Origin: an uncultured virus (IMG/VR IMGVR_UViG_3300028588_000812)
Taxonomy: Duplodnaviria > Heunggongvirae > Uroviricota > Caudoviricetes
DNA length: 64,000 bases
Reading direction: 5' to 3' (one strand)
IMG/VR virus record: IMGVR_UViG_3300028588_000812
This document shows positions 2,179 through 60,007 of the stretch, in pieces. Each line of letters opens with the position of its first letter. The stretch's first letter is position 1. The notes under the pieces are model-generated. The model saw only the letters and a list, made by a program, of their open reading frames with translations, was not told the DNA's origin and searched no databases. Made by a program: the position numbers and the translations under genes.

Positions 2179-2186
2179 TCCGATAT
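2179..2186 (+). promoter_or_regulatory. sigma28/WhiG-type -10 element TCCGATAT, probable leaderless start
   Basis: CCGATA ends 8 nt before ATG 2194; no SD. Confidence 0.55.
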
Positions 2187-2193
2187 CTTTTGC

Positions 2194-3252
2194 ATGTGCT
2201 ACCCAACCCCTGGACCTCGATGCAGTAATCATGCGTACAAAGAATATATTGATGCGCAACACAAGTTTGCCTCTTGTAGCGAACCTAATGAAAAAATTCT
2301 TTTAGGTGACCGTTTAGAGGAAAAGAAAGCTATATACGAAACAACTCCACGTGGACAGCATGAACTTCGTAGAAATGCTGATTTAGCTAAAGGCATTGAG
2401 CGCGAACAATTTCTTTTGCGTTTAAAAACAGCAGAAGAAACACGCAAGCAACAGTTAGCTGAATATAACTACGCAATTGTAAATAAAGATACAAGCTATG
2501 TAGAGTTAATGGCAGAGAAAGGCTACCGTAAAGGTCGCTATCAGGATGCTTGTGGAATTACAATTTTCTATTTGACCCAGCGTTATCCTAATAAAGAATT
2601 TGATATTGAAAATATTAATACAATTACTTTTGATGATAAGAAAATTTTTGTTATCCCAGAGAAATACCAAAAAGCTTGGGGTGTATGCAAAGAAGATAAT
2701 GGTTTCACATCAGAAGATGAAACTTTGAATAATATTTTTTCTAAAACTTTCAATCCAGCTAAACCTTCTCCTAATACAGAAAAAGAAATGATGGAGTGGT
2801 TTACGCAACAATTAAAGAATAGTGGTTACAGCGCAATAGCTTCAGTTAACAGAGCAACCCAAGATGTTGCTATTGCTGATGTAGATGATATTGCAAAGTT
2901 CTATTCTGTTAGTTTCAAACTTCAAAGAAGGTTAGGTGGAAGCACTAATTATGTTGGTAAACCTGAGGTTATTGAAGAGCTAATTAAAGATACTGTTTTT
3001 GAAGCAGGTAAAGTATTACAACCGGAAGGTGCACATAAAACAGCTATTTATGGTGTTCCGCCTCAAATCAAAGAAGATTGTATCCTTGACGAAGAATTAT
3101 ATGCATCCTGGCGTTTAACTTCTGATGAAGAAGATGGCTATTTTGAAGTACGCCGTCGTCATATCAGTAACAACTTTAATGTTATTGTTTGTTTGAAAGC
3201 TAAACGTCAAGTTTCCGTTACGGGTATTACAAGTAATATTAGTTTTAAATAA
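2194..3252 (+). CDS. hypothetical protein with MCxxxPGPRCS N-terminal domain
   Basis: 352-aa ORF divergent from 716..2086; shares PGPRCS, YxxTPxG and RLxxAxxxRxxQ. Confidence 0.7.
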   Translation: MCYPTPGPRCSNHAYKEYIDAQHKFASCSEPNEKILLGDRLEEKKAIYETTPRGQHELRRNADLAKGIEREQFLLRLKTAEETRKQQLAEYNYAIVNKDTSYVELMAEKGYRKGRYQDACGITIFYLTQRYPNKEFDIENINTITFDDKKIFVIPEKYQKAWGVCKEDNGFTSEDETLNNIFSKTFNPAKPSPNTEKEMMEWFTQQLKNSGYSAIASVNRATQDVAIADVDDIAKFYSVSFKLQRRLGGSTNYVGKPEVIEELIKDTVFEAGKVLQPEGAHKTAIYGVPPQIKEDCILDEELYASWRLTSDEEDGYFEVRRRHISNNFNVIVCLKAKRQVSVTGITSNISFK

Positions 3253-3296
3253 TAAAATAGGCCCTACCAGTTAATTCTGGTAGGGCCTATTTTATT
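3251..3296. terminator. bidirectional intrinsic terminator
   Basis: 20-bp perfect inverted repeat aataaaataggccctaccag between convergent genes. Confidence 0.8.
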
Positions 3297-4390
3297 TAGT
3301 TGTATTCTGTTCCACCCTTACGAGTAAGGTATTCTTCAGAAACGTATTTAGCAATCTTTGTGCCACCTGTTTCAAGGTTAACACGTTGTTTAGGACGAAT
3401 TACAACACCTTCGCGGATGTGTGATTCTGTGCCAGAAACAAGTTCTTTTCCAGATGCATGAGCTACCACTGTATTTACAGAGAATGGACCTTTGTAAAGT
3501 ACAGGTGGAGTAGGAATTCCAGCTTTTTCAGTTAATGTTTCAACTTCATCAGGGTTAAGCCACCTTGATACGCTAGTTCCATCTTCATTGTTGTAGTTAA
3601 CATTGATGTCAAAGACAACAAAGCCATGACCACCATTAGTGTAACCATATTTAAGGTCTTGAACTGCTCCGAAAGTTTCACCAAAGATAGCAATTTTGTT
3701 GAAATGAGCATTAGGGTATGTTTCAACAACAACTTGTACAAGCTTGTTTAGGTCATACTTTTTGCTCATTTGCCAGTAAAGGTTCTTTTCCTCTTCTTTT
3801 AGAGCTAGGTTGCTTTTACCTAGACCTTTAGAAGTGACTAATAGTTTATTTTCGCCCTGAGGGTCAACAAACGTGTAGCAAGAACATGTACCATGGATTT
3901 TTTCAGTAAGAACTACTTCTTCTCCATCCTCAAAAAGGTCAGGGAATTTCTTTAAGTTCTCAATTTCAATCCAACGAACAATTTCTGGTGCAGATTGTGT
4001 CATTCCAGCAAGGCTAGCAGGGACAACAGGTTCCCATTTAGTAATGCCAAGAATTTCAGCAAAATCTCCATCTTTCCCGATTTTTTCTAAAGCTCCATCA
4101 GGTAGTAGAGATAATGGTGCCACTACACCTTGTGAAAGTGCGCCACGTAGTGACACAGGTTTCACACGATTTTGTGCTTTACCAGAAAGTTTTCCTTCAA
4201 GCCCAAGAGCAATTGTAATGTTCTCAGGAAGAATAGCAAACTCTGGCACATAAAGCACTTCATCGCCAGTTTTCCACGTGCCTTTACCTACAACGATGTT
4301 GTAAAGACCTACGCGAGCAAGCTCTAGTCGGTCAGCATTGGGGTGTGGGAATACTTCAATTTTTTCAATAGTTACCTCAAATGTTGCCAT
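3296..4390 (-). CDS. RNA ligase, DRB0094/Rnl2-like family with N-terminal OB domain
   Basis: HPNADRL N-terminus; nucleotidyltransferase motifs EKIHGT, GETFG, FVVFDI, REGVVIRP, AKYVS; start MATFEV. Confidence 0.88.
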   Translation of the reverse strand: MATFEVTIEKIEVFPHPNADRLELARVGLYNIVVGKGTWKTGDEVLYVPEFAILPENITIALGLEGKLSGKAQNRVKPVSLRGALSQGVVAPLSLLPDGALEKIGKDGDFAEILGITKWEPVVPASLAGMTQSAPEIVRWIEIENLKKFPDLFEDGEEVVLTEKIHGTCSCYTFVDPQGENKLLVTSKGLGKSNLALKEEEKNLYWQMSKKYDLNKLVQVVVETYPNAHFNKIAIFGETFGAVQDLKYGYTNGGHGFVVFDINVNYNNEDGTSVSRWLNPDEVETLTEKAGIPTPPVLYKGPFSVNTVVAHASGKELVSGTESHIREGVVIRPKQRVNLETGGTKIAKYVSEEYLTRKGGTEYN

Positions 4391-4495
4391 TATTGGTACC
4401 TCTCTTTCATATAGGATAATGAGCTTCGAAATTCCACTCATGGGTTCCACCAGACACGAAAGAGTGTCAAGAACTACTATAACATACTTTTATAG

Positions 4496-4951
4496 TTAAA
4501 GCAAAGGTGACCAGATAGATTTGATAACTGATGAACGCTTAATTAACCATTCACGAATAGCTGGCTCATCTTCTTCTGTTACGAAAACAGAGGCTGAACA
4601 CACGGAAGCTTTTCTTTGCAACATATAAAATAAAGAAAGTTCATGGCAAATATCTTCTTCACCAGCACAAACATGACATTCTTCTTTGGAACCATAATAA
4701 TCATCATTTTCATCATTATGGTCATAACGCTTCCAATCCCAGCGCCAAAGTAAATTCAAATCTTCATCACCATCATAAAGCCAGTTGCCTTTATCTTCTA
4801 GCATTTTTTCGTTAGGAGAATACTTTGAAAGGCTATCAGCGAAACTTTCCCAACTATCAAATTCTTTATGAGCCTCAGAGTATGGCTGATAATAGTTACC
4901 TGGTGTGGCATAGTAAGGGTGGGATTCTTCCCACAAGTGTTGGTTAGTCAT
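4496..4951 (-). CDS. hypothetical phage/plasmid-type protein
   Basis: 151-aa Trp/acid-rich ORF coupled to the upstream gene. Confidence 0.7.
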   Translation of the reverse strand: MTNQHLWEESHPYYATPGNYYQPYSEAHKEFDSWESFADSLSKYSPNEKMLEDKGNWLYDGDEDLNLLWRWDWKRYDHNDENDDYYGSKEECHVCAGEEDICHELSLFYMLQRKASVCSASVFVTEEDEPAIREWLIKRSSVIKSIWSPLL

Positions 4952-11616: not shown

Positions 11617-11624
11617 GCCGATAG
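11617..11624 (+). promoter_or_regulatory. sigma28/WhiG-type -10 element GCCGATAG upstream of pilT
   Basis: intergenic, ~50 nt before ATG, AAGGA SD downstream. Confidence 0.55.
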
Positions 11625-13719: not shown

Positions 13720-13752
13720 TAAAAGTATTTAGCTTGTGCTATACTTTTGTTT

Positions 13753-14657: not shown

Positions 14658-14685
14658 TAAAGGGTTTCTTCTACCAAACCGATAT
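14658..14685 (+). promoter_or_regulatory. complete sigma28/WhiG-type promoter TAAA-N16-ACCGATAT, leaderless
   Basis: TAAA 14658-14661, ACCGATAT 14678-14685, ATG 14693. Confidence 0.65.
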
Positions 14686-14692
14686 AAGTATT

Positions 14693-16301: not shown

Positions 16302-18290
16302 CTATTTAATATCGGAGTTAGTTTTGTTTTTCTGGTAACAGTCATCACAAGTTTTAAACCAAGGCGCTGTAGGCTTGTTGCACTTAGCACATACACCTAA
16401 GCTAGAATTCTTAATTCCAATACTAAGAATTTTGATAATAGCATCCGTAATAATATCTTCTGCTTCACGTAATCTATTTTCATTTAGAGTACCTAACCAG
16501 CGAGTACCTTGCTTTTCTGTACCGAACATGACCATAGCCATTTTCAATTCTGCATTAATTTTGATTGCATGTTCAAGTGCTTCAATAGTATTAGCTGCTT
16601 CTTTGGCAGGCAAAGTCTTAGCAGACTTAGCCCATAACCATACATTGTCATTAAAGAAGCTACTTAGACGGTTACTCTCTTCACGGTATGGTGAACATAA
16701 CCATTCAGCAATTTGTGTCAAACTAGGTAAAGCAGAGTCATATGGACCTGAACCTAGTTGCCATAATTCATTAATGTCAACATTAAGGTTACTAGGATAA
16801 TCGTTGATATCAAAGATTTTACCTTCATTCCATGGTGCAGTTGGAATATGCAATGCATGCAAAATGGTCATAATGTTTTTACTAAGAACACTTAATGTAG
16901 CAGCTTCTAATGGCTCGTCAATTAATGTTTTGTTAGCAATGACCTGCCATTGGTAGATAGCTGGTAGTAGTTGTGAAGCTGCGACAGCACCACCATTAAT
17001 ATCTAAACCTAAATCATTTAATCTAGGCGCAATAATAGCAGTTTCTACATCTAAATCTGTAGGAGCTTTACCTGCTGCTGCGAGTACGGCTGTCTTAACT
17101 AAATCGCGGTCTTTAGATAGCCAAGGTAGACCTTCTCCAAGGTAAACGCTACCTTCTTCACTTAAACCAAAACGACCTGCACGCCCAGCAATTTGAGCGC
17201 CTTCCCAAATATGTAATGGTCGCACAGTTGAACCATCAAACTTTTCAGTTTGTGTGAATACAACATTATCAATAGGAAGGTTAATTCCATGACCAATAAC
17301 ATCAGTAACAACCATTACATCATATTTGCCATCTTCGTAAGCTTCAATTTGCTTTTTGCGTGCTTTAAGAGGTAAGTCACCATAAAGGATACCTACCTTA
17401 CGTCCTTTCTTTTGCAAGAAGTTAGCTACCGTATAAACAGATTTACGAGAGAAACACACAATAGCAGTTTTATTTGGAACTTTGGCAATATCTATCGTAC
17501 CTTTATAAACAATAGGCGTCTTACGTGTAAAGCTCTGGCTATCTGAATGCCATGCTTGACTTGTAAGTTTTTCTACTAAAGGTACTGCTTCCGCAGCAGT
17601 TAACCCATAAATATTTGTATAGTCTGTGCTGTAAAGAAGTTTTGTCCAGACATGACCTCTACTTGGCTCAGCAAGCCAGTGTGCTTCGTCAATTAAGATA
17701 GAATGACCTTCCGTGGGGGCCATTTCTGCTGTAGTTGCTAGTAGTTTAGCCTGTGGGTTAATTTGCTCTTCACCAGTAATGAACCCAACTTTGTCAGCAC
17801 CATAACGGTCAACCATTTTGTTATAAACTTCGAAAGCCAATAGACGTAAAGGCCCACAGTAAACATGTGTTTTGTCTGGGTTGTTGTCATAATCATGGAA
17901 CAATTGTTCTAATCCATTATATGTTTTGCCAGAGTTAGTAGGACCAACAAAAAGCATTGTTTTAGCAGGCTGACTTGTGCGACGACGAGTGTCAACAACT
18001 ATGTTGCTACGCAAACGTGCTTTAAGCTCTGCAACGTTCTTGCGGAAATTCTCTTCTTTAACTTCATCGCTAACTTTGTTAGCTTTTTCTTCTTCACGAG
18101 TTAATTTGATGATTGTTTTTAGAGCATTGAAATCATCAATAGAGATAGCCCATTTGCCGCGACTATTTTTAACTTTACCCACTTGGGCTTTGTTCATAAG
18201 TTCTGTAAACTCATGATTTTTTAAACCTAAACTTGTTGTAGCTGTATGTACAGTAATAATGTTTGGTTTTGAATTAGGAACTGAGGTCAT
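16302..18290 (-). CDS. Suv3-like SF2 helicase with C-terminal Zn ribbon
   Basis: GPTNSGKTY, YCGPLRLLAFEVY, ITGEE, DEAH, QIAGRAGRFG; CAKC...CDDC. Confidence 0.88.
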   Translation of the reverse strand: MTSVPNSKPNIITVHTATTSLGLKNHEFTELMNKAQVGKVKNSRGKWAISIDDFNALKTIIKLTREEEKANKVSDEVKEENFRKNVAELKARLRSNIVVDTRRRTSQPAKTMLFVGPTNSGKTYNGLEQLFHDYDNNPDKTHVYCGPLRLLAFEVYNKMVDRYGADKVGFITGEEQINPQAKLLATTAEMAPTEGHSILIDEAHWLAEPSRGHVWTKLLYSTDYTNIYGLTAAEAVPLVEKLTSQAWHSDSQSFTRKTPIVYKGTIDIAKVPNKTAIVCFSRKSVYTVANFLQKKGRKVGILYGDLPLKARKKQIEAYEDGKYDVMVVTDVIGHGINLPIDNVVFTQTEKFDGSTVRPLHIWEGAQIAGRAGRFGLSEEGSVYLGEGLPWLSKDRDLVKTAVLAAAGKAPTDLDVETAIIAPRLNDLGLDINGGAVAASQLLPAIYQWQVIANKTLIDEPLEAATLSVLSKNIMTILHALHIPTAPWNEGKIFDINDYPSNLNVDINELWQLGSGPYDSALPSLTQIAEWLCSPYREESNRLSSFFNDNVWLWAKSAKTLPAKEAANTIEALEHAIKINAELKMAMVMFGTEKQGTRWLGTLNENRLREAEDIITDAIIKILSIGIKNSSLGVCAKCNKPTAPWFKTCDDCYQKNKTNSDIK

Positions 18291-21705: not shown

Positions 21706-21758
21706 TTATTTTTATTCCCTTAATTAATCTTATTGTTCTTGCTTTATATCTATCGTCG

Positions 21759-23895: not shown

Positions 23896-23903
23896 ATATC
23901 GGC
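23896..23903 (-). promoter_or_regulatory. sigma28/WhiG-type -10 element GCCGATAT
   Basis: 11 nt before the FtsK-like ATG; no SD. Confidence 0.55.
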
Positions 23904-30103: not shown

Positions 30104-30586
30104 TTAATTGCACTCCTTTACAAAGTTAGATACTTTCTCTATCTTTATATCGCCTACAAAATTAATTGCAAGTCTTTTTATGATTTTGTGATGACCGCAG
30201 AAAACTGGGGCATCAATTTGACGGGAAATGAGGATTGAGAAATCTTCATCTAAAACATTTAGTAACTCTAAAGCTTTAGGTAACCAAAAGTTTTCATACA
30301 GCAAAGCGCTAGGTGGCATTTTGCGATTTAATGATTTGATTGATACAACACTTTCTTCTAAAGAGATATTGTACGAATCGGATTGAATGTTATTAACACA
30401 AATGCTTTCTGTTGCATAATCTAATTTAAAGGCAGAACCTAAAGAAGGTATGTAACCAATGAAATCATTACGTAAAGGCGAATAGAAAGGTATGCCTTCA
30501 CTTTTTATTAAAGAATATATATCACCTTTGCGTAACCCAAACATTTCTTCTAAGCTTTCTAAGCTGTAAGGGTATAAATCTTTCAT
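30104..30586 (-). CDS. hypothetical protein
   Basis: 160-aa ORF, ATGA-coupled. Confidence 0.65.
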   Translation of the reverse strand: MKDLYPYSLESLEEMFGLRKGDIYSLIKSEGIPFYSPLRNDFIGYIPSLGSAFKLDYATESICVNNIQSDSYNISLEESVVSIKSLNRKMPPSALLYENFWLPKALELLNVLDEDFSILISRQIDAPVFCGHHKIIKRLAINFVGDIKIEKVSNFVKECN

Positions 30587-32967: not shown

Positions 32968-33001
32968 ATATCGGCTGACTTTTTATCTAGTGTGTTATCA
33001 T
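32968..33001. promoter_or_regulatory. back-to-back promoters: GCCGATAT (minus, DivIVA-like operon) and TGT-TATCAT (plus, sigma/peptidase operon)
   Basis: tatcggc at 32969-32975; TATCAT at 32996-33001, 10 nt before ATG 33012. Confidence 0.55.
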
Positions 33002-35992: not shown

Positions 35993-36000
35993 ATATCGGT
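35993..36000 (-). promoter_or_regulatory. sigma28/WhiG-type -10 element ACCGATAT
   Basis: intergenic, upstream of the Flp-like pilin. Confidence 0.55.
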
Positions 36001-37116: not shown

Positions 37117-37183
37117 TATTGTCCTTCCTAAACTTTAAGCTAGAAAAACTATCGGCACGATAGGGACAAAAAACCTGCGATTT

Positions 37184-41997: not shown

Positions 41998-42021
41998 ATA
42001 TATTATCGCCTTATTTAAAAC

Positions 42022-42065: not shown

Positions 42066-42071
42066 AGTTAT

Positions 42072-45000
42072 TTAGTTTTGTGTTACAAAACTCTTAGCTA
42101 CTGATTTCTCAGATGTAGCTGTTGCTGATTTAGCTTCAACACGTAAGATGTAGCTTGTGTTGCTAGTTAAACCAGAGATTGTTACGCTAGGTGCAACTGG
42201 CATTCCGAATACTGGTGCTGGTTGCGCTACGTTGACTGACTTAGTTACACCATTTGCTGTGTAGTAAACTACATAACTTGTGGCATTTGTAACAGTACCC
42301 CATTTAGCTGTTACGCTACTGTTGGTAATTGTTGAAAGTTCAACGTTAGCTGGGATATCAAGCGGTTGACTGATACTGAATGGTGCAGAAGCTCCGGAAG
42401 TTGCAGTAGGGTTAGTAGCTGAAACTGTAATTGAAGCTGTTGAACCAGCAGGAACAGTAACCTTTGTAGAGTTAGTTGTAACTGATGTTGTTGTTGATGT
42501 ACCATTAATGGTTGTCACAACTGTGTACTTAGTGATACCTTGCCATGCGTTCCAACCTACAGTGTAAGTATTAGCTGATTGAGAAATAACAGCGATACCA
42601 GTTGGTGTAGGTGGTTTACCTTTACCATATTCACATAATGCAGAATAGTTAGGGTCTGACTCTTCTTGAAGAGCACAGTCTTGACCTTCTACTTGTGCAG
42701 GAGGGGTAATTGAGTTAGAAACTTCTGATTGGTTAGGGTTACCTTGTTGTACAGAACCACCACGTGAAGTTCCACCAGCCCATACTTGTGCAGGTGCAGC
42801 AGCATAGTAGTTAGGGTACTTAGAAGGCCATGTGGTCCAATCAGCACAACCCATGCTACATGATAGTGAGTTTAGGAAACCTAATCTACCTACAACGTCA
42901 CTCTCTGCTGACATACCATCGTAGTTAAGAACTGTCTTAGACCAACGGTTGTTATCTCCACGAAGAGTTTGGTTTTGTGAGTAAGCAGTGAACATACCTG
43001 AATTTACATTCTGGTTGTTTAATGTTTCTCCACCACCGTTAACCCATGTGTATGTTTGAACATATGAACCCATACCACGGTTAACACCAGTATCAACTTG
43101 ACGGAACATTCTTGTTTGAACACCACTTGCAAAACGCTTGTCCTCATAGTTACCACCCATCCAACGAGGAAGGTCAGGCTTGGATAAGAACTTAGCAGTG
43201 TTACTTACACGAGTTAAACCGTTGTGTGCTGATGATGTAACTGTGAAACGGTAAGCACTACCTGGCATTTCGTTTTGGTAAAGTAAGCTTTGGTTACCTG
43301 TTACATAAACAGCAGATGCGTTTTGTGTACCAGCTTGGTCAACTGTTGCGCCGGAAGCGTAACGGTCACGTACAAGGCTGTAACCTCTAGAAGCGTTCAT
43401 TGATTGATTCCATGTAACGTTAATGGAAGCATATGAGTTACTTGAACGAGAGAACATACCAACTGGAAGGTAGTTAGTTGAACTCATTGGGCGAGAAAGG
43501 TCACAAGGGTTGCTTGGTGTACCGTTAGGGTCACTCCAACAAGTGTAAGCGTTAGGAAGAGGCTTGCTTTCGTCAATAACACGGAATACAGATGCGTTAA
43601 CAACGTTAGCAATACCGAACTTACCTGGTTTTTGCTTCACTTCAACAGAGCTAGCAACACCTGGTCCAGCATCGTTATATGGAACAGCTTTGTAGCAGTC
43701 ATATGAACCCCAGTCTGCTTGTGAGTCAGTAATAGTATTACCAGTGAAGTTCAAACGTGCTTGTGCTGTTGCATAGTCACATTCTGTTGTTCCAGCTAAT
43801 GTTTCAAAGGTTTGCATACGGAAACCATCAGTGTTAGCTGCACGAGCAGATACACTAATAATAGCGTCAGTAGTTGTTGAACGTGTTGAAGTGTCAGGTG
43901 TAGCAGCAACAAGTGTTGAAGCGCTTGGTGGGCTAACTAGACGTTCTGTTTCTGATGCAACACTTTCTCCACCAGCGTTATAAGCTTTAACAGTATAGTT
44001 TCTGTTTGCACCATAAGCACTAGAAAGTTGTGTCCATTGTGTACCTGCGCTTGTAACTGTAGCTACAGGTGTAGCAAAGTTGGTTCCTTCGTAAATACGG
44101 TATCCTTCAACACCATATGTAGATGACCAAGCTAATTGGTTAGTTAAACCACGAGCAACAGTGTAACGGTTACCACTTAAAATGTCAGTTGTTGCAACAG
44201 ATTTAGCAGCAATGTTAGTTTCTGCGGCACGTGAAAGAGTTTCAGTTCCAGTTCCGTTTTTTGTAGCAGCTAATGTTGCAAGGCTGTTAACGTTTACGAA
44301 ACCAACTTCATCAGGAACAACAGTACCTGTGATAGGACCACAGGCAGGTGAGTTTCCACCAGAACCGTTAGCTTGGATAGTCCAACGGTATGTTGTACCC
44401 CATGCAAGGTCTTTATCAACGAAAGTCAAAGTATCTGGGTCACCAATAACAAATGAACCTTCAGTAGCGTTTGTGCTGCTGTTTACACGGTAAATTGTGT
44501 ATGATGTTGCACCAGAAGGTGAGTACCATGACAATGTAGCTTGTGTTTCTGTAGGAACAATATCCACACGGAAGTTAGCAGGACATTCAGGAATGCTGCT
44601 GTAGCTGTCTGGGATTGTACCAGTTGTTGAACCACCAGCAGTTGTAGCTGCGCTTGATTCCATTTGAATTGGAGTTCCACGACCATCTGCGTTAGCAGCG
44701 ATACGGAATTCTACACGCTCAATACGGCTCAATGAAGAAGCTGGTGCGCTATTAGTGTCAGTAATAGCAGGAACAGTAATTAATTCATTTTTAGCATCGT
44801 AGTAATCAAATACATGGCGCTTTTCTGGGTTAGCGAATCCTACAGGGTTGTGACCTTTAACTGTAATCTTTTGTCCAGTTGTTCCTGCGGAAATGTCATA
44901 ACGAATTTCAATTATTGCTTTATAAGCAGGTAATTGAGACGCAATTGCTCGGGCGGGAAGAGCATTTGGACTCGCAGGGTCATAAGCAAAGTATGTAATT

Positions 45001-45290
45001 TCATAATCTTTGCTTGCTTGACGGATTTGGACTGTAATAGAGTTATCAGTAGCAGTCAATACTTTCTGTGCGGAAGATAAATCTCTCTGCATAGAAGCGA
45101 CTGCGTTAGAAACTTCGTTTTGAGTAGTTGTTACATTACCAAAACGGGATGCAGAATTCAGGGTTGTGTTAATAAGTGTCACAACCATGACTGAAACAGC
45201 AGCTAGAAGGGCAATGGCTACTAGTATTTCTACTAGAGTCATACCTTCTTCTCTGTTTGGTACGTTACGTTTTAAAAATTTCACCTTCAT
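42072..45290 (-). CDS. giant prepilin-type protein (PilW-like N-terminus) with multiple fibronectin type III domains; probable adhesin
   Basis: EEG|MTLVEILVAI class III signal; FN3 patterns LSW..PSGATSYTIYR...LAWGTTYRWTIQA and GLTSNTSYILRVEA. Confidence 0.85.
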   Translation of the reverse strand: MKVKFLKRNVPNREEGMTLVEILVAIALLAAVSVMVVTLINTTLNSASRFGNVTTTQNEVSNAVASMQRDLSSAQKVLTATDNSITVQIRQASKDYEITYFAYDPASPNALPARAIASQLPAYKAIIEIRYDISAGTTGQKITVKGHNPVGFANPEKRHVFDYYDAKNELITVPAITDTNSAPASSLSRIERVEFRIAANADGRGTPIQMESSAATTAGGSTTGTIPDSYSSIPECPANFRVDIVPTETQATLSWYSPSGATSYTIYRVNSSTNATEGSFVIGDPDTLTFVDKDLAWGTTYRWTIQANGSGGNSPACGPITGTVVPDEVGFVNVNSLATLAATKNGTGTETLSRAAETNIAAKSVATTDILSGNRYTVARGLTNQLAWSSTYGVEGYRIYEGTNFATPVATVTSAGTQWTQLSSAYGANRNYTVKAYNAGGESVASETERLVSPPSASTLVAATPDTSTRSTTTDAIISVSARAANTDGFRMQTFETLAGTTECDYATAQARLNFTGNTITDSQADWGSYDCYKAVPYNDAGPGVASSVEVKQKPGKFGIANVVNASVFRVIDESKPLPNAYTCWSDPNGTPSNPCDLSRPMSSTNYLPVGMFSRSSNSYASINVTWNQSMNASRGYSLVRDRYASGATVDQAGTQNASAVYVTGNQSLLYQNEMPGSAYRFTVTSSAHNGLTRVSNTAKFLSKPDLPRWMGGNYEDKRFASGVQTRMFRQVDTGVNRGMGSYVQTYTWVNGGGETLNNQNVNSGMFTAYSQNQTLRGDNNRWSKTVLNYDGMSAESDVVGRLGFLNSLSCSMGCADWTTWPSKYPNYYAAAPAQVWAGGTSRGGSVQQGNPNQSEVSNSITPPAQVEGQDCALQEESDPNYSALCEYGKGKPPTPTGIAVISQSANTYTVGWNAWQGITKYTVVTTINGTSTTTSVTTNSTKVTVPAGSTASITVSATNPTATSGASAPFSISQPLDIPANVELSTITNSSVTAKWGTVTNATSYVVYYTANGVTKSVNVAQPAPVFGMPVAPSVTISGLTSNTSYILRVEAKSATATSEKSVAKSFVTQN

Positions 45291-45319
45291 ACATTATATA
45301 TATCGGTTAAAATTTCGAA

Positions 45320-46624
45320 CTACAACTCTTCTACGTAAGTATTGACCCAAATGTGCCTTGTTGTGATAGATTCTAGCGACCTAGCAGCCAGATCCATGTA
45401 AACTTTAGCTGAATCGTAAACATTTACAGTTGCACAAGCCATACCACCAAAGAAAATACCTGGTCCGGTAACATTACATGTAGCATTTTCGCTAGTGTAA
45501 AGGAACTGAGTGCGGTTTGCTGTTGTTGAACTACCTACAGTTAAGTTACCACCAACTGAACGAATAACAAGCTTAGTTGGAGCACCAGTAGAGTTTACAG
45601 ACACACCTGGTTTAACTGTAACGTTACCCAAAACATTCAAACGTAATGGTGAACCAGCACTAAAACTAGCAGGAACCGTTGTATTAATATCAAAATCTAA
45701 TCCACCTAAACAAGTGTTAGTAGGAAGATTAAGAACACCACTGTTTTCAGATGCTTTCCAAATTGGATAACCAGTTCCAGTACAAATAGATTTAACATTC
45801 TCTGTAACACCAGCTAAGCTTACCTCAGAGTTACGGTAACTTTGGGTAACAGGAGCGGTATTACATACGTTAGAAGGAACACAACCTGTGTTGACGCCAG
45901 GATAACTTGAAATAATGTTGCTAATACCATGTTGAGTGTTAGCAATAGCGACTGCTGTATTAGTGGAAGCTACAGTTCCATTTGTAGCAGTTCCTGTAGG
46001 AACACTACCGCTTTTTGCACTATCAAAAGAATAAAGTTTCGTTGTACCAGAGAAATTTACACCAGTTGTACCCAAAATACCATAAGCCCATGAGCTATCA
46101 GCGCTTAATGTATAAGCTACATTTACTGCTCCGTCAGCCTGAGAAACATATTTTCCGCTATTAACTTTAGAACCTTGGAAAATGGAACGCAAAGTTACGC
46201 CTTCGTCAGGGCCTAAGCTTGAAATATATCCGGTTGAGTAGACGTAGTAAGCAACGGTGTTACCAGATGTAACAACACGTTCAGTATATACTCTCCATTT
46301 TAAACCTTCAACATTATAAGCGCCAACTGGTGGTGTTCCAGTTGTTGCGTTAGCAATAGTTCTCTTACTTTCAAGCCATTTTGTGTCAGTGCTGTTGTTT
46401 GCATTAAATAAAGCGTTTTCAATACCGTTGTTTGCAGCAGAAAGATTAGCTTCACGTAAAGAGTTTACTCGGGAAGATTGAGATTGTGTTGTCGCTGTTG
46501 TAGCAACAATTACTGATACCAATAGCAATAGCATTAGTAACAAGATAGCGAAAATCATCGCTGCGCCAGACTCTCGGTCTTCGCCATTACGATAATTTTT
46601 TAATTTATCCATCATTTTTAACAT
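45320..46624 (-). CDS. PilX-like minor pilin
   Basis: ESG|AAMIFAILLL without E5 (typical of PilX); AANNGIENA; VYSTGY; beta-rich C-terminus. Confidence 0.75.
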   Translation of the reverse strand: MLKMMDKLKNYRNGEDRESGAAMIFAILLLMLLLLVSVIVATTATTQSQSSRVNSLREANLSAANNGIENALFNANNSTDTKWLESKRTIANATTGTPPVGAYNVEGLKWRVYTERVVTSGNTVAYYVYSTGYISSLGPDEGVTLRSIFQGSKVNSGKYVSQADGAVNVAYTLSADSSWAYGILGTTGVNFSGTTKLYSFDSAKSGSVPTGTATNGTVASTNTAVAIANTQHGISNIISSYPGVNTGCVPSNVCNTAPVTQSYRNSEVSLAGVTENVKSICTGTGYPIWKASENSGVLNLPTNTCLGGLDFDINTTVPASFSAGSPLRLNVLGNVTVKPGVSVNSTGAPTKLVIRSVGGNLTVGSSTTANRTQFLYTSENATCNVTGPGIFFGGMACATVNVYDSAKVYMDLAARSLESITTRHIWVNTYVEEL

Positions 46625-46635
46625 TTATAAAATCC

Positions 46636-47289
46636 TTAGTTCTTACAACCGAATGGAATTGTCCCATTAGCATTGATTGAGTCTGGAATACAATCATTTG
46701 GGGTTGGTGTGCGAGTGTAAGAAGTGACATATGTGTTCCACTTGCCTTCGCCTGAGTAAACATCTTGCCATGTTACTGTTACATAAACTCTTTTAGGGAA
46801 GTAACTTGTGCTAGCTGAGCCTTGACCGTCAGTTAAGTAAACAATCTTAGTCTGAACATAGAAAGTTGAACCTACTCCACCTTTTTCATTAGTAGCTTGA
46901 CGAGCTTGACAATAAACTAAACCTTCATAAGGGTCACCAGTACCTTTAGTAACAATTACTGTGCTTGATGCTGGTATAGATGATTGGTCCGCTGAACATT
47001 TTCCAGGTCCGTATAATGATGCATCTGTAGTATCTGCTGGTTTAACATACAATCTTTTGTAATCAGCTTGTTTAGCGACTGCTAGAACGTCTTGGGCAAT
47101 GGAAGATGCTTTTGAGCGGTTTTCATTGTATGCAGATGTTCGGAACGCCGTGGAAAGAGAATTAGCGGTGAAGATTAGTACGATTGCAATAATAACAATA
47201 GCAACCATGGTTTCTACAACAGTTAATCCTTCTTCTGGGTTCAAACGTTTGGCTTTCAAGTTGAAAGCTTTAAAAGGTGAAGAGTTCAT
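46636..47289 (-). CDS. PilV-like minor pilin
   Basis: likely start MNSSPF at 47289; EEG|LTVVETMVAI; KRVYVTVTW. Confidence 0.8.
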   Translation of the reverse strand: MNSSPFKAFNLKAKRLNPEEGLTVVETMVAIVIIAIVLIFTANSLSTAFRTSAYNENRSKASSIAQDVLAVAKQADYKRLYVKPADTTDASLYGPGKCSADQSSIPASSTVIVTKGTGDPYEGLVYCQARQATNEKGGVGSTFYVQTKIVYLTDGQGSASTSYFPKRVYVTVTWQDVYSGEGKWNTYVTSYTRTPTPNDCIPDSINANGTIPFGCKN

Positions 47290-47299: not shown

Positions 47300-47347
47300 A
47301 TATCGGTAAAAAGAAAAAGACCTCGTTTACTGAGAAAATGCCGATAG
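47300..47347. promoter_or_regulatory. divergent pair of sigma28/WhiG-type -10 elements (pilin operon on minus, sigma gene on plus)
   Basis: tatcgg 47301-47306 (minus) and GCCGATAG 47340-47347 (plus). Confidence 0.65.
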
Positions 47348-47379: not shown

Positions 47380-48120
47380 ATGTCCAAACCATCTGAAGAA
47401 GAGCAAGAACGTACCGCTGCATTGTGGGCAGAATATAAGTCTGTACCTACATCACGTTTACGTAACATTCTTGTCGAAAAATATACGCCATTAGTGCATA
47501 AAATTGCTGGAACTTTTGCCCACAAAAAGCCATCTGTGTTAGATTACGATGATTTAGTGCAAGCTGGGCGTATGGGTTTACTTGATGCAATAGAGAAATT
47601 TGACCCTCAAAACGAGCGTAAAGCTCAATTCCAAACTTATGCCACTTTCCGTGTGCGCGGCGCTATTCTTGACGAAATAAACTCAATGGATTGGACCCCA
47701 CGTAGCGTCAGGCAAGATATTAAAGAAGTTCTTAGAAGTATCGAAAAGCATTATTCCAAAACATCTTTAGAGCCTACCGTGCAAGATATAGCAAAATCAG
47801 CAAATCTTGACAAAGAACGAACCAGAATTATTCTTAGCCAAATGGATAAAACTTATGTTGTCCATGTAGACAATGACATTATTGATATTGTTGGCCCCAC
47901 AACTGACCATGCAAAATCAGAGCTAGAAAGTATTATTAGCATTGCAATGGACAAAGTTCTAACGCCCCTTGAAAAATCTTTTGTTCAAATGAAATACTTC
48001 ATGGGATACAATAATAAAGAAATACAAGAGGCGCTAGAACTAAAAGTCAGCGAACTTAAACATGTCAGAGATTCAGCTATTGTTAAACTTAGTGCAGAGC
48101 TAGAAAACCCTATCAACTAA
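47380..48120 (+). CDS. FliA/WhiG (sigma28)-family RNA polymerase sigma factor
   Basis: RNILVEKYTPLV, DDLVQAGRMGLLDAIEKFDP, FQTYATFRVRGAILDE, DWTPRSVR; likely start MSKPS. Confidence 0.92.
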   Translation: MSKPSEEEQERTAALWAEYKSVPTSRLRNILVEKYTPLVHKIAGTFAHKKPSVLDYDDLVQAGRMGLLDAIEKFDPQNERKAQFQTYATFRVRGAILDEINSMDWTPRSVRQDIKEVLRSIEKHYSKTSLEPTVQDIAKSANLDKERTRIILSQMDKTYVVHVDNDIIDIVGPTTDHAKSELESIISIAMDKVLTPLEKSFVQMKYFMGYNNKEIQEALELKVSELKHVRDSAIVKLSAELENPIN

Positions 48121-51604: not shown

Positions 51605-51702
51605 TTAAGACCTTCCATACCTTAATATTATATCGGCAATCACATTCAAGGAATAATTAGCAAATATGGTATCCTTATATAACTGATTTTAAGAGGAATT
51701 TA

Positions 51703-54510: not shown

Positions 54511-54518
54511 GCCGATAA
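54511..54518 (+). promoter_or_regulatory. consensus sigma28 -10 element GCCGATAA
   Basis: intergenic, upstream of 54555. Confidence 0.6.
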
Positions 54519-56154: not shown

Positions 56155-56185
56155 AATACTATTATCGGCATTATGAGTAAGAGTT
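56142..56185. promoter_or_regulatory. 16-bp perfect inverted repeat enclosing a GCCGATAA -10 element and overlapping the pilin start codon
   Basis: aactcttactcataat-[actattatcggc]-attatgagtaagagtt. Confidence 0.75.
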
Positions 56186-56195
56186 CCGTATTAGA

Positions 56196-57005: not shown

Positions 57006-57096
57006 GTTGACTCCATTATACACAACTACTACTTTTATCTCCTATAAATATCGGCTTTACTTCCAAAAAGCCCAAAATAATGATACAATAACAAAT

Positions 57097-58121: not shown

Positions 58122-58778
58122 TTAGCAGTCCCAACCGCCATTATGCTCTTCTCGCTTAAATGTTTCTTCTAACGCGCCCGTAACCATTTCATAAGTGCTA
58201 CTATCAAGCTGATTATCAAAGCTATAATAACCTGGTCTACTAAAACCAGTATCAAGTTTATTAAATGGATTGCTTATACCATTCATTTCCATATCAACAC
58301 CATTTTGATAACCCTTATAGCCAACTTCACTTAGCTCTTGATTAAGTTTTTCAGCATCATCTTTTGTTACAACAATACCTTTTTGTTGCAAGCTTTCTAC
58401 CAAAAATCTTGCAGAACCAGCAGCTTCCCTTACTTCTTCTTGGTCTACTTGAGTATAACTAATATATGGTTCATCTAATCCTGGCCCGTCATTGTAATGG
58501 TCTGCATTTCGTAACGCGCTATGAGTGTCAAGCGCATCAGGGTCTATATTTTTATACTTCTTAACATCTTCTTGTCTTGCTTGTTCAAAAGCGGTGCCAT
58601 CTGAATTCTTTTCAACAGTAGAACCGTGTTCATAAGATCCACCAGAAGCTGCTTCAAAATCTTTTCTTAATGCAAAATAGGCGTTAAAGTCACCAGAAGC
58701 AGCCGCTGTATCTACTGCTCTACGCATTTCCCCTTTACTACAAAAACGACCATTACCGTCATGGTATGGATTAGGCAT
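58122..58778 (-). CDS. hypothetical protein with NPYHDxxGRFCS N-terminal tag
   Basis: first ~42 aa similar to those of 9448..11475. Confidence 0.75.
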   Translation of the reverse strand: MPNPYHDGNGRFCSKGEMRRAVDTAAASGDFNAYFALRKDFEAASGGSYEHGSTVEKNSDGTAFEQARQEDVKKYKNIDPDALDTHSALRNADHYNDGPGLDEPYISYTQVDQEEVREAAGSARFLVESLQQKGIVVTKDDAEKLNQELSEVGYKGYQNGVDMEMNGISNPFNKLDTGFSRPGYYSFDNQLDSSTYEMVTGALEETFKREEHNGGWDC

Positions 58779-58880
58779 AACATTCCCCTTAAATAAAAGC
58801 TTTAATAGTTTATTGATATCAACATTGAGAAAGAGTTAGTACGTCTGTACAGGTTAAGAGCAAAATAAGATGCTAAGTGT

Positions 58881-59408
58881 TTATAGCTTAGTACCATCAG
58901 ATAAGATATAAGGTTCAAAATTATCAAACTCTTCATCGGGAACATCAAGCTCACGAACAGTAACTTTTAATTCGCCATATTTTTCATGGGTAGCAGAAAG
59001 CCATAAATATGGCCCTTCCTCATGAAAGTGTATTTCTGTTCTATCAGGAAGTCTTTGTTCCGTACCTGACCAAAATGGTACATAGAAACCGCCACCATAC
59101 ATGTATTCCATAAACTGTACAGGGTCATGAAAAGGGCAAGGTACCCCTTTATCTCTAAAATCATCATCAGCATCACACAAACCCCACCCTTGATAATCGC
59201 CTTCCCATTCAACAATAGTTGAACAAACACTATCAGGATAACTGGCTCCAAATGCTGACCATGTAAGATAACCAGGGCATTTTTCTACTCCAACAGAAGT
59301 AGGCTCCCCAAATATCATACCAAGTTCGCGCGCAGCTACAGAATAAGCTTCACCAGTTTCTTTAACACGGTCACGGATAGCTTTTTTACGATTACTATTA
59401 CGAGTCAT
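58881..59408 (-). CDS. hypothetical protein with actinobacterial MTRNxxRKxAIRxRxxxTGExYxxAAR N-terminus and Cys-rich domain
   Basis: recognisable N-terminal pattern; CPG, VC, LCD, CPFH. Confidence 0.7.
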   Translation of the reverse strand: MTRNSNRKKAIRDRVKETGEAYSVAARELGMIFGEPTSVGVEKCPGYLTWSAFGASYPDSVCSTIVEWEGDYQGWGLCDADDDFRDKGVPCPFHDPVQFMEYMYGGGFYVPFWSGTEQRLPDRTEIHFHEEGPYLWLSATHEKYGELKVTVRELDVPDEEFDNFEPYILSDGTKL

Positions 59409-59588
59409 TACAAACTTTCACAAGCTAGAAACCTACGTCAAACCAGCTTGGTTTTTACTCAGTAAAATAACAAACGGTTAATAATAGAATCCACTAAGGA
59501 CTTTGCTCTTAACCTTAATTCTTACGTAGGAAGAGCTAAGACAAGACAGGCTACTATAACAGCCGGTCTAGTAATCATAGCACAAAAA

Positions 59589-59620
59589 TTGGGGTGCTAC
59601 TGAAAATAGTAGCACCCCAA
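59589..59620 (-). terminator. terminator
   Basis: ttggggtgctact / agtagcaccccaa. Confidence 0.7.
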
Positions 59621-59631
59621 AATAGCTTTAG

Positions 59632-59862
59632 TTAAAGTAGTTTTTTCAAAGCAGTTAAACTTACAACCAAATCGTCAATAATATCAGCATCAAATTGCCC
59701 CGCTAAGTCAACCTTTGCAATTACAGGTAAAGTTAATTCTTCTACTTCTTTGCCACGAACAACAATAAGTTTACCTGTGCTATCACTGATAACAACAGCA
59801 GAAGGCTTAACCTTATTTGTGTTCATAGTTTCTACATTATGGTCTTGTTGAACCGCACCCAT
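59632..59862 (-). CDS. hypothetical protein
   Basis: 76-aa ORF; GGCGATAG element at 59893-59900. Confidence 0.55.
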   Translation of the reverse strand: MGAVQQDHNVETMNTNKVKPSAVVISDSTGKLIVVRGKEVEELTLPVIAKVDLAGQFDADIIDDLVVSLTALKKLL

Positions 59863-60007
59863 TACAACTCATTCCTTAGATAGATACCCATTCTATCGCC
59901 TTAAACTGAAATTTACAACATATGAATGCGACATTCAATAACTATTTGGTAAACACGTTCTCATGGTAAGATATACTTATTCATAAATGTTATAGAAAGG
60001 GTATCCA

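Follow-up and report, generated by a model that had tools for sequence, protein, structure and literature searches.

Control of pili by sigma-28-family factors is already known from cells, as described in the sources cited here. In the Actinomycetota, WhiG has been re-used for pili, with regulons that include type IV pilus genes and the gene of the sigma factor itself, and with promoters that combine a GCCGATAA-like -10 element and a well conserved -35 element, T(A/C)AA, at N16 (PMC12871210). FliA has been re-used for pili in Bdellovibrio (PMC5430801), where the attack-phase regulon described includes a Tad/Flp pilin operon (PMC5430801, PMC3627812). In the open complex at P. aeruginosa fliC, GCCGATAA spans -15 to -8, ten residues of sigma-28 are named as -10 contacts, and the -35 element (TCTAAAG) is essential, with activity cut by the Q228A substitution (PMC12784957). 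Among phages, the sigma factors encoded by SPO1 switch transcription from early promoters of the host sigma to phage-specific later promoters (PMC13401047), and those described for group 2 jumbo phages are minimal gp55-like and RpoD-like proteins, not of the sigma-28 type (PMC7824862). The case described here would be a further variant of such control, found on a replicon that is unclassified and has phage-like gene content.

The replicon, uncultured and from plant litter (37–40% G+C), was analysed as a window of 64,000 nt. At 47380..48120 on the + strand it encodes a 246-aa protein (longest ORF from 47338; conserved ATG at 47380), for which the best NCBIfam models were WhiG (E 1.7e-44) and FliA (E 1.5e-40), though the scores fell under every curated cut-off (152.5 vs 343 for WhiG; 139.4 vs 189.6 for FliA_WhiG). 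The best PDB sequence matches were S. venezuelae WhiG, to whose structures the protein is 30–31% identical in fold alignments, and the sigma-28 structures of E. coli, P. aeruginosa, and Aquifex. An AF2 model (pLDDT 81.5) has three helical domains (2, 3, and 4) and a disordered 3.2 linker, and its top fold matches were a chain titled RPSD (presumably SigD of B. subtilis), WhiG, and sigma-28. Together with the DWxPRS signature, present as DWTPRS at residues 104–109, these matches uphold the assignment to the FliA/WhiG family made by an earlier, sequence-only reading of this DNA.

In a pairwise alignment, seven of the ten -10-contact residues of P. aeruginosa sigma-28 are identical (D66, Y76, R80, R82, D87, D93, and R97 correspond to D75, Y87, R91, R93, D98, D104, and R108), while of the remaining three H100 corresponds to R, which E. 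coli FliA and WhiG also have, R101 to Q, also found in WhiG, and R104 to K, a conservative exchange (PMC12784957; PDB 9wsm, 6pmi, 1rp3). Across 32 members of the clade, R91, D98, W105, T106, P107, R108, and R111 do not vary. Judged by these alignments, the factor retains most of the residues that read GCCGATAA. The recognition helix of region 4, in contrast to that of canonical sigma-28, is substituted, differing from E. coli FliA at the presumed -35-reading positions, which were mapped through the E. coli alignment, as the P. aeruginosa alignment ended at residue 169.

The hexamer CCGATA occurs 16 times on the two strands of the window, a total not above chance (11.15 ± 3.96 in shuffles; at least 16 in 13 of 100 shuffles); its signal is positional, not numerical. 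With untouched longest-ORF calls, 11 of the 16 occurrences are intergenic, in a window that is 6.7% intergenic (binomial P 4e-10). Once the starts of four genes had been refined, 15 of the 16 fell 0–60 nt upstream of a start on the same strand (observed range, 8–50 nt) compared to 3.2% of positions (P 7e-22), four of the 15 assignments hinging on the choice of an internal start (16300, 47289, 47380) or on overlap with an opposite-strand ORF (57049). Fully automatic greedy gene calls placed 11/16 upstream; the 179 other hexamers with this base composition together occur 4623 times, and 65 of these occurrences qualified (P 1.7e-17). When all hexamers were scanned blind, CCGATA ranked first for intergenic enrichment once words of pure A/T were set aside, while its 18 one-mismatch variants were upstream at near-background rates (0–11%). 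The extended form RCCGATAT was seen eight times (1.5 expected; none of 100 shuffles reached eight); the consensus is r-CCGATA-t. Depletion from coding sequence was modest (3 observed, 9.2 ± 2.8 expected from 500 synonymous-codon shuffles, of which 1.6% gave three or fewer; P 0.016). The earlier observation of upstream boxes is confirmed: positional enrichment over background holds, and all 15 CCGATA sites it listed are present at the coordinates and on the strands claimed. The 16th, at 15709 (-) and absent from that list, is intragenic in ORF 15566–16300. Of the variants it had named, GGCGATA is found at 30148..30154 (-), 42004..42010 (-), and 59894..59900 (-), three of seven occurrences in the window, and GACGATA at 21751; the GGCGATA sites lie 45 nt before an 89-aa ORF with a Shine-Dalgarno sequence (29833–30102), 6 nt before the ATG of 40801–41997, and 31 nt before 59632–59862, respectively.

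The boxed genes are scattered across the window, with pilus-like genes among them. A pilus-like block at 42072..47289 (-), recognised by N_methyl and fn3 domains and prepilin-type N-termini, comprises a PilV-like prepilin (46636–47289), a 434-aa PilX-like protein (45320–46624), and a 1072-aa prepilin with a C-terminal FN3 domain (42072–45290). Boxes precede the first by 11 nt (47301..47306, -) and the last by 10 nt (45301..45306, -), and others stand 8 nt before the ATG of a type IV pilin gene at 55696–56154 (56163..56168, -) and 50 nt before a PilT-family ATPase gene at 11674–12903 (11618..11623, +; PilT/PilU model TIGR01420, 368.6 bits, over the 319.1 cut-off). Four of the five pilus-like genes thus carry their own box (hypergeometric P 0.008) and the fifth is in an operon with a boxed gene, so that the proposed link between box and pilus stands. 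The label "pilV" is overstated, as its matches all fall below curated cut-offs. The sigma gene is itself boxed, as had been claimed, by 47341..47346 (+), 33 nt from its start and the divergent partner of the box at 47301.

Boxes also precede several membrane, lipoprotein-like, and unassigned proteins. Those at 2180..2185 (+) and 14679..14684 (+) each lie 8 nt before the ATG of a gene without an assigned function (2194–3252, 352 aa; 14693–15445, 250 aa), and two more unassigned genes have boxes at 33 nt (37150..37155, -; 36028–37116, 362 aa) and 37 nt (54512..54517, +; 54555–55193, 212 aa). The box at 16310..16315 (-), in the final codons of an upstream helicase gene, is 9 nt from an internal ATG (16300) of a lipoprotein-like ORF, and the protein started there has a lipobox N-terminus. 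A 4-TM protein gene (50996–51604) follows a box at 51631..51636 (-) by 26 nt. The genes following the boxes at 32969..32974 (-, 32 nt) and 35994..35999 (-, 43 nt) encode a coiled-coil protein (31563–32936) and an 81-aa membrane protein (35705–35950), for which the earlier labels "DivIVA-like" and "Flp-like" found no family support. The remaining two precede an FtsK/SpoIIIE-like gene (21759–23885; box 23897..23902, -, 11 nt) and a gene whose product is DnaC-like by PHROG (56196–57023, 8.7e-16; box 57049..57054, -, 25 nt). These two genes were the only basis for the "DNA-transfer programme" of the sequence-only reading, a claim that is not sustained, as just 2 of 15 DNA- or nucleotide-metabolism genes are boxed and no relaxase or secretion-system genes were found in the window. 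Promoters of another class, with the extended -10 element TGnTAkAmT, serve most of the DNA and nucleotide genes.

The box is strictly oriented with its gene and is not palindromic, the sequence flanking it is not conserved between sites, and its distances to the ATG fall into two classes. In the near class the interval is 8 nt in three genes, 9 nt in one, 10 nt in one, and 11 nt in two; the remaining eight of 15 sites have leaders of 25–50 nt with Shine-Dalgarno sequences. Since GCCGATAA spans -15 to -8 at fliC, 8 nt separate CCGATA from +1 in canonical sigma-28 promoters (PMC12784957), a distance that matches the near spacing, and these seven boxes fit sigma-28 geometry for leaderless mRNA. 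No conserved -35 element was found upstream of the boxes (best column, A at -21, 14 of 22 sites), in contrast to the Actinomycetota WhiG promoters (PMC12871210) and to P. aeruginosa fliC (PMC12784957). TAAA at canonical spacing is present only at 14658, and the suggestion that the promoters are -10-dominated, with a divergent region 4, is in keeping with these results. The box and the upstream gene's terminator are fused at four sites; at two of them the box lies in the terminator loop, and at two of the four the ATG lies in the 3' arm. The hairpin after the PNKP gene (14659–14715; -32.5 kcal/mol, z -8.5) carries box 14679 at its top, and the hairpin at 56135–56190 (-28.5 kcal/mol, z -7.7) has box 56163 in its loop and the ATG in its 3' arm. 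The box at 23897 and the variant at 42004 directly follow terminators (23910–23950, -26.4 kcal/mol, z -6.6; 42021–42066), the stems of which fill the -35 zone.

Boxes in hairpin loops at two sites could be visible to an RNA- or ssDNA-binding factor, and an invariant core of 6–7 nt without a second box could be half an operator. CCGATA could then be the site of a DNA-binding regulator, or a processing or translation signal near message 5' ends, and not a -10 element. We consider this very improbable, given the orientation and asymmetry of the box, the unconserved flanks, the two distance classes, which fit a promoter with or without a leader and not a translation signal, and the match to the -10 element of the very sigma family encoded alongside. 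CCGATA is a genuine upstream element, oriented and conserved, and it matches the sigma-28 -10 core.

Its conservation was assessed in two relatives (L115 and L116), both compared over the same 8-kb neighbourhood, which covers four of the 15 boxes; the box is kept at all seven orthologous positions (4/4 and 3/3, respectively) while the flanking DNA diverges. The sigma is 64% and 61% identical in L115 and L116, neighbouring proteins are 33–47% identical, and the synteny of the pilus-like block is kept in both. Upstream of the sigma orthologue the box is found at 2757+ in L115 and 4544+ in L116, and that of the PilV-like gene at 2709- and 4509-, each 11 nt before the ATG. The prepilin/FN3 box and start are nearly identical in both (564- and 2393-). 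The box at 51631 has a counterpart upstream of the L115 orthologue (6578-), conserved in position relative to the gene, the two boxes occupying different columns of the pairwise alignment.

We give a probability of roughly 0.7 to the explanation that the boxes are a -10 class read by RNA polymerase with a sigma-28-family factor, most probably the replicon's own 47380–48120 protein. Sigma regions 2.3–3.0 would read the extended -10 element as FliA and WhiG read GCCGATAA, and, as region 4 has diverged, a sequence-specific -35 element would not be needed. Transcription would start about 8 nt past the box, at seven of the 15 sites on the ATG or 1–3 nt before it, giving leaderless or near-leaderless mRNA. 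The class would drive the sigma gene itself (a putative positive feedback), all the window's pilus-like genes, and a number of membrane and unassigned proteins, while TGnTAkAmT is presumably read by the host primary sigma. The coexistence of a promoter class of primary-sigma type with a class that would be specific to the element's own sigma, in a window that has no RNA polymerase gene, recalls the phage systems (PMC13401047, PMC7824862), though in this case the box is the -10 of bacterial sigma-28 and not a phage-specific motif of the kind described there; the two classes would form a two-tier, probably temporal, programme. Where the ATG lies in a terminator's 3' arm, the start codon would be free only in transcripts that begin from the box.

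The same boxes could be genuine sigma-28 promoters read by a host FliA, SigD, or WhiG, with the replicon sigma redundant, otherwise specific, or host-boosting, in which case the replicon would tie the boxed genes to the motility or developmental state of its host. The box is identical to the universal -10 core of sigma-28 promoters as described (PMC12784957, PMC12871210), and a second, very divergent sigma-like protein is present at 33317–34606, so the assignment of sigma to promoter is not one-to-one by default. Canonical sigma-28 promoters, however, rely on the -35 element absent here (PMC12784957), and the replicon sigma keeps the -10-reading residues, with its gene boxed in all three genomes compared. 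Nor was the enrichment seen in 34 viral loci from IMG/VR with more distant sigma homologues (26–42% identity), where only 6 of 143 CCGATA were upstream-intergenic. We regard reading by a host sigma as unlikely. We infer that the boxes fire, in an order and from start points of the kind proposed, and that they probably depend on the replicon's sigma rather than the host's, for which the term "master switch" goes beyond what is shown; the sigma-28 regulon interpretation of the sequence-only reading is partly supported.

The genes of the window are those of a large replicon of phage-like type and not of a conjugative element, at odds with the transfer programme of the earlier reading. The window could instead be a chromosome piece of an unbinned small-genome bacterium (0.6–1 Mb; episymbiont or predator type), with the sigma as the cell's ordinary FliA/WhiG controlling type IV pili, as described in Actinomycetota and Bdellovibrio (PMC12871210, PMC5430801). 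Homologues of the sigma and of PilT occur on contigs ranging from 617 kb to 1.0 Mb, which is in keeping with small cells and beyond the 735-kb phage genome given as the largest described as of 2020 (PMC7162821); the window has housekeeping-type genes (thyA, folA, ssb, signal peptidase I, recG-like, sbcCD, pilT); capsid, portal, and terminase families were not found in it; and no relative was found in IMG/VR. Among 185,579 species (one genome each), however, relatives of the sigma (best 34%), PilT, and a 696-aa neighbour were not found, diverse as the clade is (about 80 proteins at 39–99% identity). There is no tRNA in the 64 kb, the Pfam hits include neither ribosomal proteins nor aminoacyl-tRNA synthetases, and 40 of 68 proteins are without a Pfam family. 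Modules typical of phages (an RNA ligase alongside polynucleotide kinase, a fusion of RecE-like and DnaQ parts, an exonuclease that bears an intein, a gene for the IF3 C-domain only, and families of tandem paralogues) likewise weigh against a cellular chromosome, which we consider improbable. The replicon is best termed unclassified and phage-like. Unlike Actinomycetota WhiG, its sigma is on a replicon absent from GTDB representatives, and the general annotation of the window revealed no RsiG-like anti-sigma. Unlike Bdellovibrio FliA, with which it shares the direction of a broad non-flagellar programme with pilins by a flagellar-type sigma, it sits among phage-type replication, repair, and nucleotide genes, with no flagellar gene in the window, and its prepilins are type IVa-like, compared to Flp in the regulon described (PMC5430801).

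Parts of 40–59 kb, including the whole prepilin/FN3 gene, are represented in contigs assembled from four metatranscriptome libraries; such contigs, with DNA carry-over possible, cannot show starts or rank genes. RNA contig X20 (42055–45325) extends 19 nt beyond the 45301 box and X19 (to 45545) enters the upstream gene; therefore, read-through exists at this site.

All 15 CCGATA sites that the sequence-only reading had listed upstream of genes were present in the window, and one further copy was found inside a gene (15709, minus strand). The total was unremarkable (16 compared to 11.15 ± 3.96 expected), so the case for CCGATA as the candidate −10 box of sigma-28-type promoters rests on placement. 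Under automatic greedy ORF calls, 11 of the 16 boxes were intergenic and 0–60 nt upstream of a same-strand start, compared to 65/4623 occurrences of the 179 remaining hexamers with the same base composition (P = 1.7e-17), and in the raw longest-ORF table 11/16 boxes fell within the 6.7% of the DNA that is intergenic (P = 4e-10). With refined starts, 15/16 boxes qualified against a background of 3.2% (P = 7e-22). For this count, the start of three genes was moved to an internal, conserved ATG (16300, 47289, and 47380), and the box at 57049, located within an overlapping ORF of the other strand, was included. When all hexamers were ranked blind, CCGATA came top of those not made up of A/T alone. 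Coding sequence contained three boxes compared to 9.2 ± 2.8 in synonymous shuffles (1.6% as low), indicating that the box is somewhat avoided there. Single-mismatch variants occurred upstream at background levels (0–11%), with the exception of GGCGATA, for which three of seven copies (42004, 59894, and 30148) occupy the promoter-like positions that had been noticed. The extended word RCCGATAT occurred eight times (1.5 expected). Overall, placement of the box confirmed the original observation.

Conservation was tested on two metagenome loci, L115 and L116, in which the sigma factor is 64% and 61% identical to that of the window (the two close loci among the best 80). Gene order around the sigma gene (47380–48120, plus strand) is kept in both, with neighbouring proteins only 33–47% identical, and the box is kept at all available orthologous positions (4/4 in L115, 3/3 in L116). 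In alignments it appears as a conserved block in diverged DNA, joined by the start codon at the gene for the prepilin with a fibronectin type III (FN3) domain (box at 45301); the box pair at 51631, before a gene with four transmembrane (TM) helices, gave no column-for-column alignment. As a specificity control, 34 IMG/VR loci with more distant sigma homologues were scanned, and 6 of their 143 boxes were upstream-intergenic. A DNA-pattern scan with the conserved FN3 promoter-plus-start matched one viral and two genome contigs, all without protein similarity and dismissed as chance; in these three loci CCGATA is scattered throughout, without the upstream placement of the window.

Across the 15 window sites and seven sites in relatives the CCGATA core is invariant, preceded by G or A in 20/22 sites and, in the window, followed by T in 10/15. 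TAAA at canonical spacing (N15–16) occurs only at 14658 (1/22 sites), as the sequence-only reading had cautioned, and a search for a −35 element recovered no fixed-distance TAAA and no other conserved upstream word, the best column being A at −21 (14/22). In a sigma-28 study, GCCGATAA is placed at −15 to −8 (PMC12784957), which puts +1 8 nt after CCGATA. The distance from box to ATG is 8 nt at 2194, 14693, and 56154, 9 nt at one gene, 10 nt at one, and 11 nt at two, and the orthologous sites of L115 and L116 keep the 11-nt distance. This geometry (8–11 nt, seven sites) is consistent with a predicted transcription start about 8 nt downstream of the box, from which the seven sites would produce leaderless mRNAs or mRNAs with leaders of 1–3 nt. 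The other eight boxes have predicted leaders of 25–50 nt that carry purine-rich, Shine-Dalgarno-like stretches.

Membership of the sigma factor in the sigma-28 family was borne out, as the top NCBIfam models were WhiG (1.7e-44), FliA_WhiG (1.5e-40), and FliA (2.9e-39), with the SigB/F/G model (2.2e-21) behind and the RpoD models well behind too. Scores were below the curated cut-offs (152.5 bits vs 343 for the WhiG equivalog, 139.4 vs 189.6 for the TIGR02479 subfamily, and 135.3 vs 201 for FliA), and the protein is thus a divergent branch of the family and no orthologue of any curated member; Pfam detected region 2 only. The best sequence matches in the PDB were S. venezuelae WhiG (6pfv/6pfj) and FliA (6pmi, 9wsf, and 1rp3, from the sigma-28 factors of E. 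coli, P. aeruginosa, and Aquifex). An AF2 model built with 32 clade members (pLDDT 81.5) contains sigma2, sigma3, a disordered finger, and a four-helix sigma4 (helices 6–103, 108–162, and 177–242; disordered linker 160–175), and sigma2, sigma3, and sigma4 are predicted to be present without region 1.1. The best fold matches of the model were 9a7s (a chain titled RPSD, which we take to be B. subtilis SigD), WhiG, and sigma-28, with alignments to sigma-28 structures spanning 220–264 columns.

In P. aeruginosa sigma-28, residues D66, Y76, R80, R82, D87, D93, and R97 are named as extended −10/−10 readers (PMC12784957), and these GCCGATAA-reading residues are identical in the window's sigma (D75, Y87, R91, R93, D98, D104, and R108, respectively). 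Relative to P. aeruginosa, H100 is replaced by R (as in E. coli and WhiG), R101 by Q (as in WhiG), and R104 by K, and the −10 contact residues are mostly invariant across the sigma clade. The recognition helix of region 4 is heavily substituted (SRVSQLHSQAIKRL in E. coli FliA vs SELKHVRDSAIVKL in the window's sigma). According to the same P. aeruginosa study, loss of the glutamine Q228 cripples −35 reading (PMC12784957), and the corresponding position appears to be H in the window's sigma by an indirect mapping, the P. aeruginosa alignment stopping before region 4. Close homologues of the sigma comprise about 80 metagenome-only proteins (39–99% identity; P0001–P0083); from P0084 down identities are ≤37%, the named proteins are WhiG or FliA, and the organism, where given, is Spirochaetota or Leptospira. 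General Pfam, PHROG, and NCBIfam scans of the window proteins returned no FlgM or RsiG anti-sigma family. A second sigma-like protein of 429 aa (33317–34606, plus strand) is very divergent, with residues 211–350 resembling sigma-28 regions 2–3 (1rp3, E = 0.0016; TIGR02479, 2.9e-7) and without the DWxPRS stretch; its gene forms a unit of three on the plus strand with those of a 101-aa and an 8-TM protein and lacks a CCGATA box in its own orientation.

The genes directly behind the 15 boxes encode the sigma, PilT (box at 11618), a pilin (56163), a PilV-like protein (47301, with a 434-aa gene behind it), the FN3 prepilin, a lipoprotein, an FtsK-like ATPase, the 4-TM protein, an 81-aa membrane protein, a coiled-coil protein, a DnaC-like protein, and four unknowns. 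A box stands directly before four of the five pilus-like genes (P = 0.008) and the fifth lies in an operon with one, compared to only 2/15 DNA/nucleotide genes with a box. Of the proposed pilus and DNA-transfer programme the pilus link is therefore real and the transfer label is not, so that the interpretation is supported in part. No relaxase, type IV secretion, or VirB-type family was found in the window, and the only candidate for transfer is the FtsK/SpoIIIE-like ATPase (PF01580, 2e-18; TraB model 23.7 bits vs a cut-off of 800). Membrane or secreted proteins were considered as a common theme and set aside (7/15 box genes vs 16/52 others; P = 0.20, not significant). The type IV pilus-like parts are a retraction ATPase of the PilT/PilU family (11674–12903; TIGR01420, 368.6 bits, above the 319.1 cut-off), a 152-aa pilin (55696–56154), a PilV-like prepilin (46636–47289), a PilX-like protein of 434 aa, and a 1072-aa prepilin with FN3 at its C-terminus (42072–45290). 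The N_methyl family (PF07963, cut-off 21.2) is exceeded by the FN3 prepilin (24.2), just met by the pilin (21.2), and scores below the cut-off in the PilV-like protein (18.8); prepilin-type G-x-T-L/V-x-E motifs were seen in the pilus-like N-termini. PilB (assembly ATPase), PilC (platform), and PilD (prepilin peptidase) were not found among the 68 ORFs of the window, in which the sole peptidase is a type I signal peptidase (57004–57684).

TGnTAkAmT extended −10 words precede several DNA/nucleotide genes; 6 of the 15 words in the window lie within 80 nt upstream of a start, compared to a background of 4.3%. Examples lie at 5493(+), 6108(+), 9371(−), 13737(+), 18556(−), and 50255(−); most stand before genes of DNA or nucleotide metabolism, and two are only 1–6 nt from a start codon. 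This looks like a primary-sigma class, and together the two classes suggest a two-tier programme.

On this evidence it is probable (about 0.7) that the window holds a −10-only, sigma-28-type promoter class that is read by the replicon's own sigma, produces many leaderless messages, and governs pilus-like and membrane genes. Phage-encoded sigma factors are textbook knowledge. Sigma-28 control of pili has already been described in two sources, for Actinomycetota, where WhiG controls pili and itself and TSS-mapped Rubrobacter targets are cited (PMC12871210), and for Bdellovibrio, whose FliA drives ~77% of the genes of the attack phase as well as the Tad/Flp operon (PMC5430801). A jumbo-phage survey describes gp55-like and RpoD-like sigmas only (PMC7824862), whereas the window's sigma is of sigma-28 type, and open-access PMC and bioRxiv full text contained no description of a phage or plasmid promoter class that is sigma-28-type, −35-less, and leaderless. 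If the reading is true, a six-base box would place ~18 transcription units, mostly for proteins of unknown function, in a single regulatory tier to which every pilus-like gene of the replicon is linked, and a replicon that is mobile or phage-like would be able to carry sigma-28 specificity pared down to a −10-only form with leaderless messages.

At four sites (23897, 42004, 14679, and 56163) the box is fused to the preceding gene's terminator. At 23897 and 42004 a strong hairpin and T-run ends 7–10 nt before the box, so that the terminator occupies the −35 zone. At 14679 and 56163 the box sits atop a 19–21-bp hairpin (−32.5 and −28.5 kcal/mol; z = −8.5 and −7.7), with the start codon at the loop base or in the 3′ arm. 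RNA initiated at the box would lack the 5′ arm and so leave the ATG free, and a read-through transcript would fold the ATG away. We infer from this arrangement a coupling of terminator and start at 14679 and 56163, in which a single hairpin would end the upstream message, hold the next promoter in its loop, and hide the next start in read-through RNA, such that only leaderless, box-initiated transcripts would be translated. If the reading is right, such a compact terminator-promoter-start module would be directly testable and reusable in synthetic circuits. The joint reading, that of an unclassified lineage of very large replicons with its own sigma-28-type tier and −35-less, terminator-embedded promoters from which only box-born leaderless RNA is translated, is improbable as a whole. 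Most worth following are the embedding of promoters in terminators and the replicon lineage, which is unplaced and possibly very large.

A 101-aa IF3-like ORF (24465–24770, minus strand) consists of the C-terminal domain only (PF00707, 3.1e-18; TIGR00168, 59.8 bits vs a cut-off of 60), and no adjacent sequence encodes an IF3 N-domain. In E. coli, IF3 acts against leaderless mRNAs, and a protein with the C-domain only might tune the ribosome for leaderless transcripts.

Near-identical DNA (80–100% of sampled 31-mers over 10 kb) was found in three leaf-litter runs from 2019, possibly the source of the window, and in 15 straw-metagenome runs from 2025, and six metatranscriptome runs contained 19–33% of sampled 31-mers. 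RNA contigs from four libraries cover parts of 40–59 kb, including the whole FN3 prepilin gene; these are assembled contigs, which cannot show ends or rank genes, and are therefore not counted as support. None of the 32 listed contig pieces (of 125) spans the terminator at 42021–42066, and the listed pieces over 50996–51604, 56196–57023, and 46636–47289 all end short of the boxes. Word depth in the RNA contigs was 15–30 over 42.0–45.3 kb, the prepilin/FN3 gene end to end, compared to ≤9.6 in neighbouring bins; the giant pseudopilin (42072–45290) may give rise to the region's most abundant message, a lead only, as the depth of contigs provides no ranking of genes.

Single-protein and profile scans of IMG/VR with the sigma found nothing closer than 42%, and the 696-aa conserved protein near the sigma gene had no relative there and no usable match in an ESM Atlas look-up. 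In the GTDB representatives (one genome each, 185,579 species) the sigma reached ≤34% identity and neither PilT nor the 696-aa protein had a relative, and the INPHARED phage and PLSDB plasmid collections held only distant sigma matches (≤35.5%, partial, and ≤32.8%, respectively). Homologues of both sigma and PilT occur on metagenome contigs of 60,888, 104,850, and 1,000,729 bp and, the sizes being equal, probably share them; others lie on contigs of 617–908 kb. These large-contig homologues (P0019/P0145, P0026/P0134, P0020/P0161, P0004, P0035, P0123, P0147, P0158, and P0164) had no relatives in the searched GTDB-representative or IMG/VR collections. Longer PilT-like proteins (P0137, P0138, P0144, and P0148; 625–706 aa, 39–44% identical) are present in NCBI records, two of which carry the names of a firefly and of a plant-parasitic nematode and presumably derive from associated microbes or contaminating contigs.

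The gene content of the replicon is phage-like, and a large phage or phage-like element has, as a rough estimate, about even odds; another extrachromosomal replicon and an unbinned small-genome cell are each about half as probable. The phage-type replication, recombination, and nucleotide modules are present and are suggestive, not diagnostic, of phage identity. They include an RNA ligase, a polynucleotide kinase/phosphatase, thymidylate synthase (ThyA), DHFR, a RecE-like/DnaQ exonuclease, SbcC, SbcD, SSB, a DnaC-like loader, and an intein-bearing exonuclease. The replication, repair, and nucleotide genes of the window also comprise a C5 methyltransferase, Suv3-like and RecG-like helicases, and the FtsK/SpoIIIE-like ATPase; the other recognisable genes are the IF3 C-domain ORF, the type I signal peptidase, and the sigma factor. 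No PHROG or Pfam match to capsid, portal, terminase, or tail genes was obtained in the window, which is a fragment of a larger replicon; 'major tail protein' matches covered the FN3 domain only and terminase matches the P-loop only, and both were rejected. The window is 93% coding with 32–42% G+C, no tRNA was found within its 64 kb, and the presence of Shine-Dalgarno sequences and of strong intrinsic terminators speaks only against hosts in which these are missing. The clade occurs in litter and straw metagenomes of different years with relatives on contigs of up to 1 Mb, and a decision between giant phage, megaplasmid, and tiny cell would be of interest in itself.

At E ≤ 0.001, 40 of the 68 ORFs taken as genes match no Pfam family, and weak-threshold Pfam and PHROG scans of 14 unexplained proteins gave nothing interpretable. 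RNA ligase and polynucleotide kinase/phosphatase form a classic phage RNA-repair pair; here their genes (3296–4450, minus strand, and 13747–14649, plus strand) are ~9 kb apart on opposite strands, and neither has a CCGATA box. The exonuclease-like gene (phrog_298; 27196–29043, minus strand) is split by an intein (PF14890, residues 209–518). Shared N-termini without a family match were seen in the divergent pair 716–2086 (−)/2194–3252 (+), both starting M-C-x-x-x-P-G-P-R-C-S, and in the RecE-like/DnaQ exonuclease (9448–11475, minus strand) and a 218-aa protein (58122–58778, minus strand), which start Y-H-D-x-x-G-R-F-C-S. The region 60912–64000 (minus strand) contains at least three tandem paralogous genes of ~200–226 aa with 1–2 predicted membrane helices each, the first two sharing an identical 29-residue N-terminus, and the ORF at 63149–64000 may be a fourth member.
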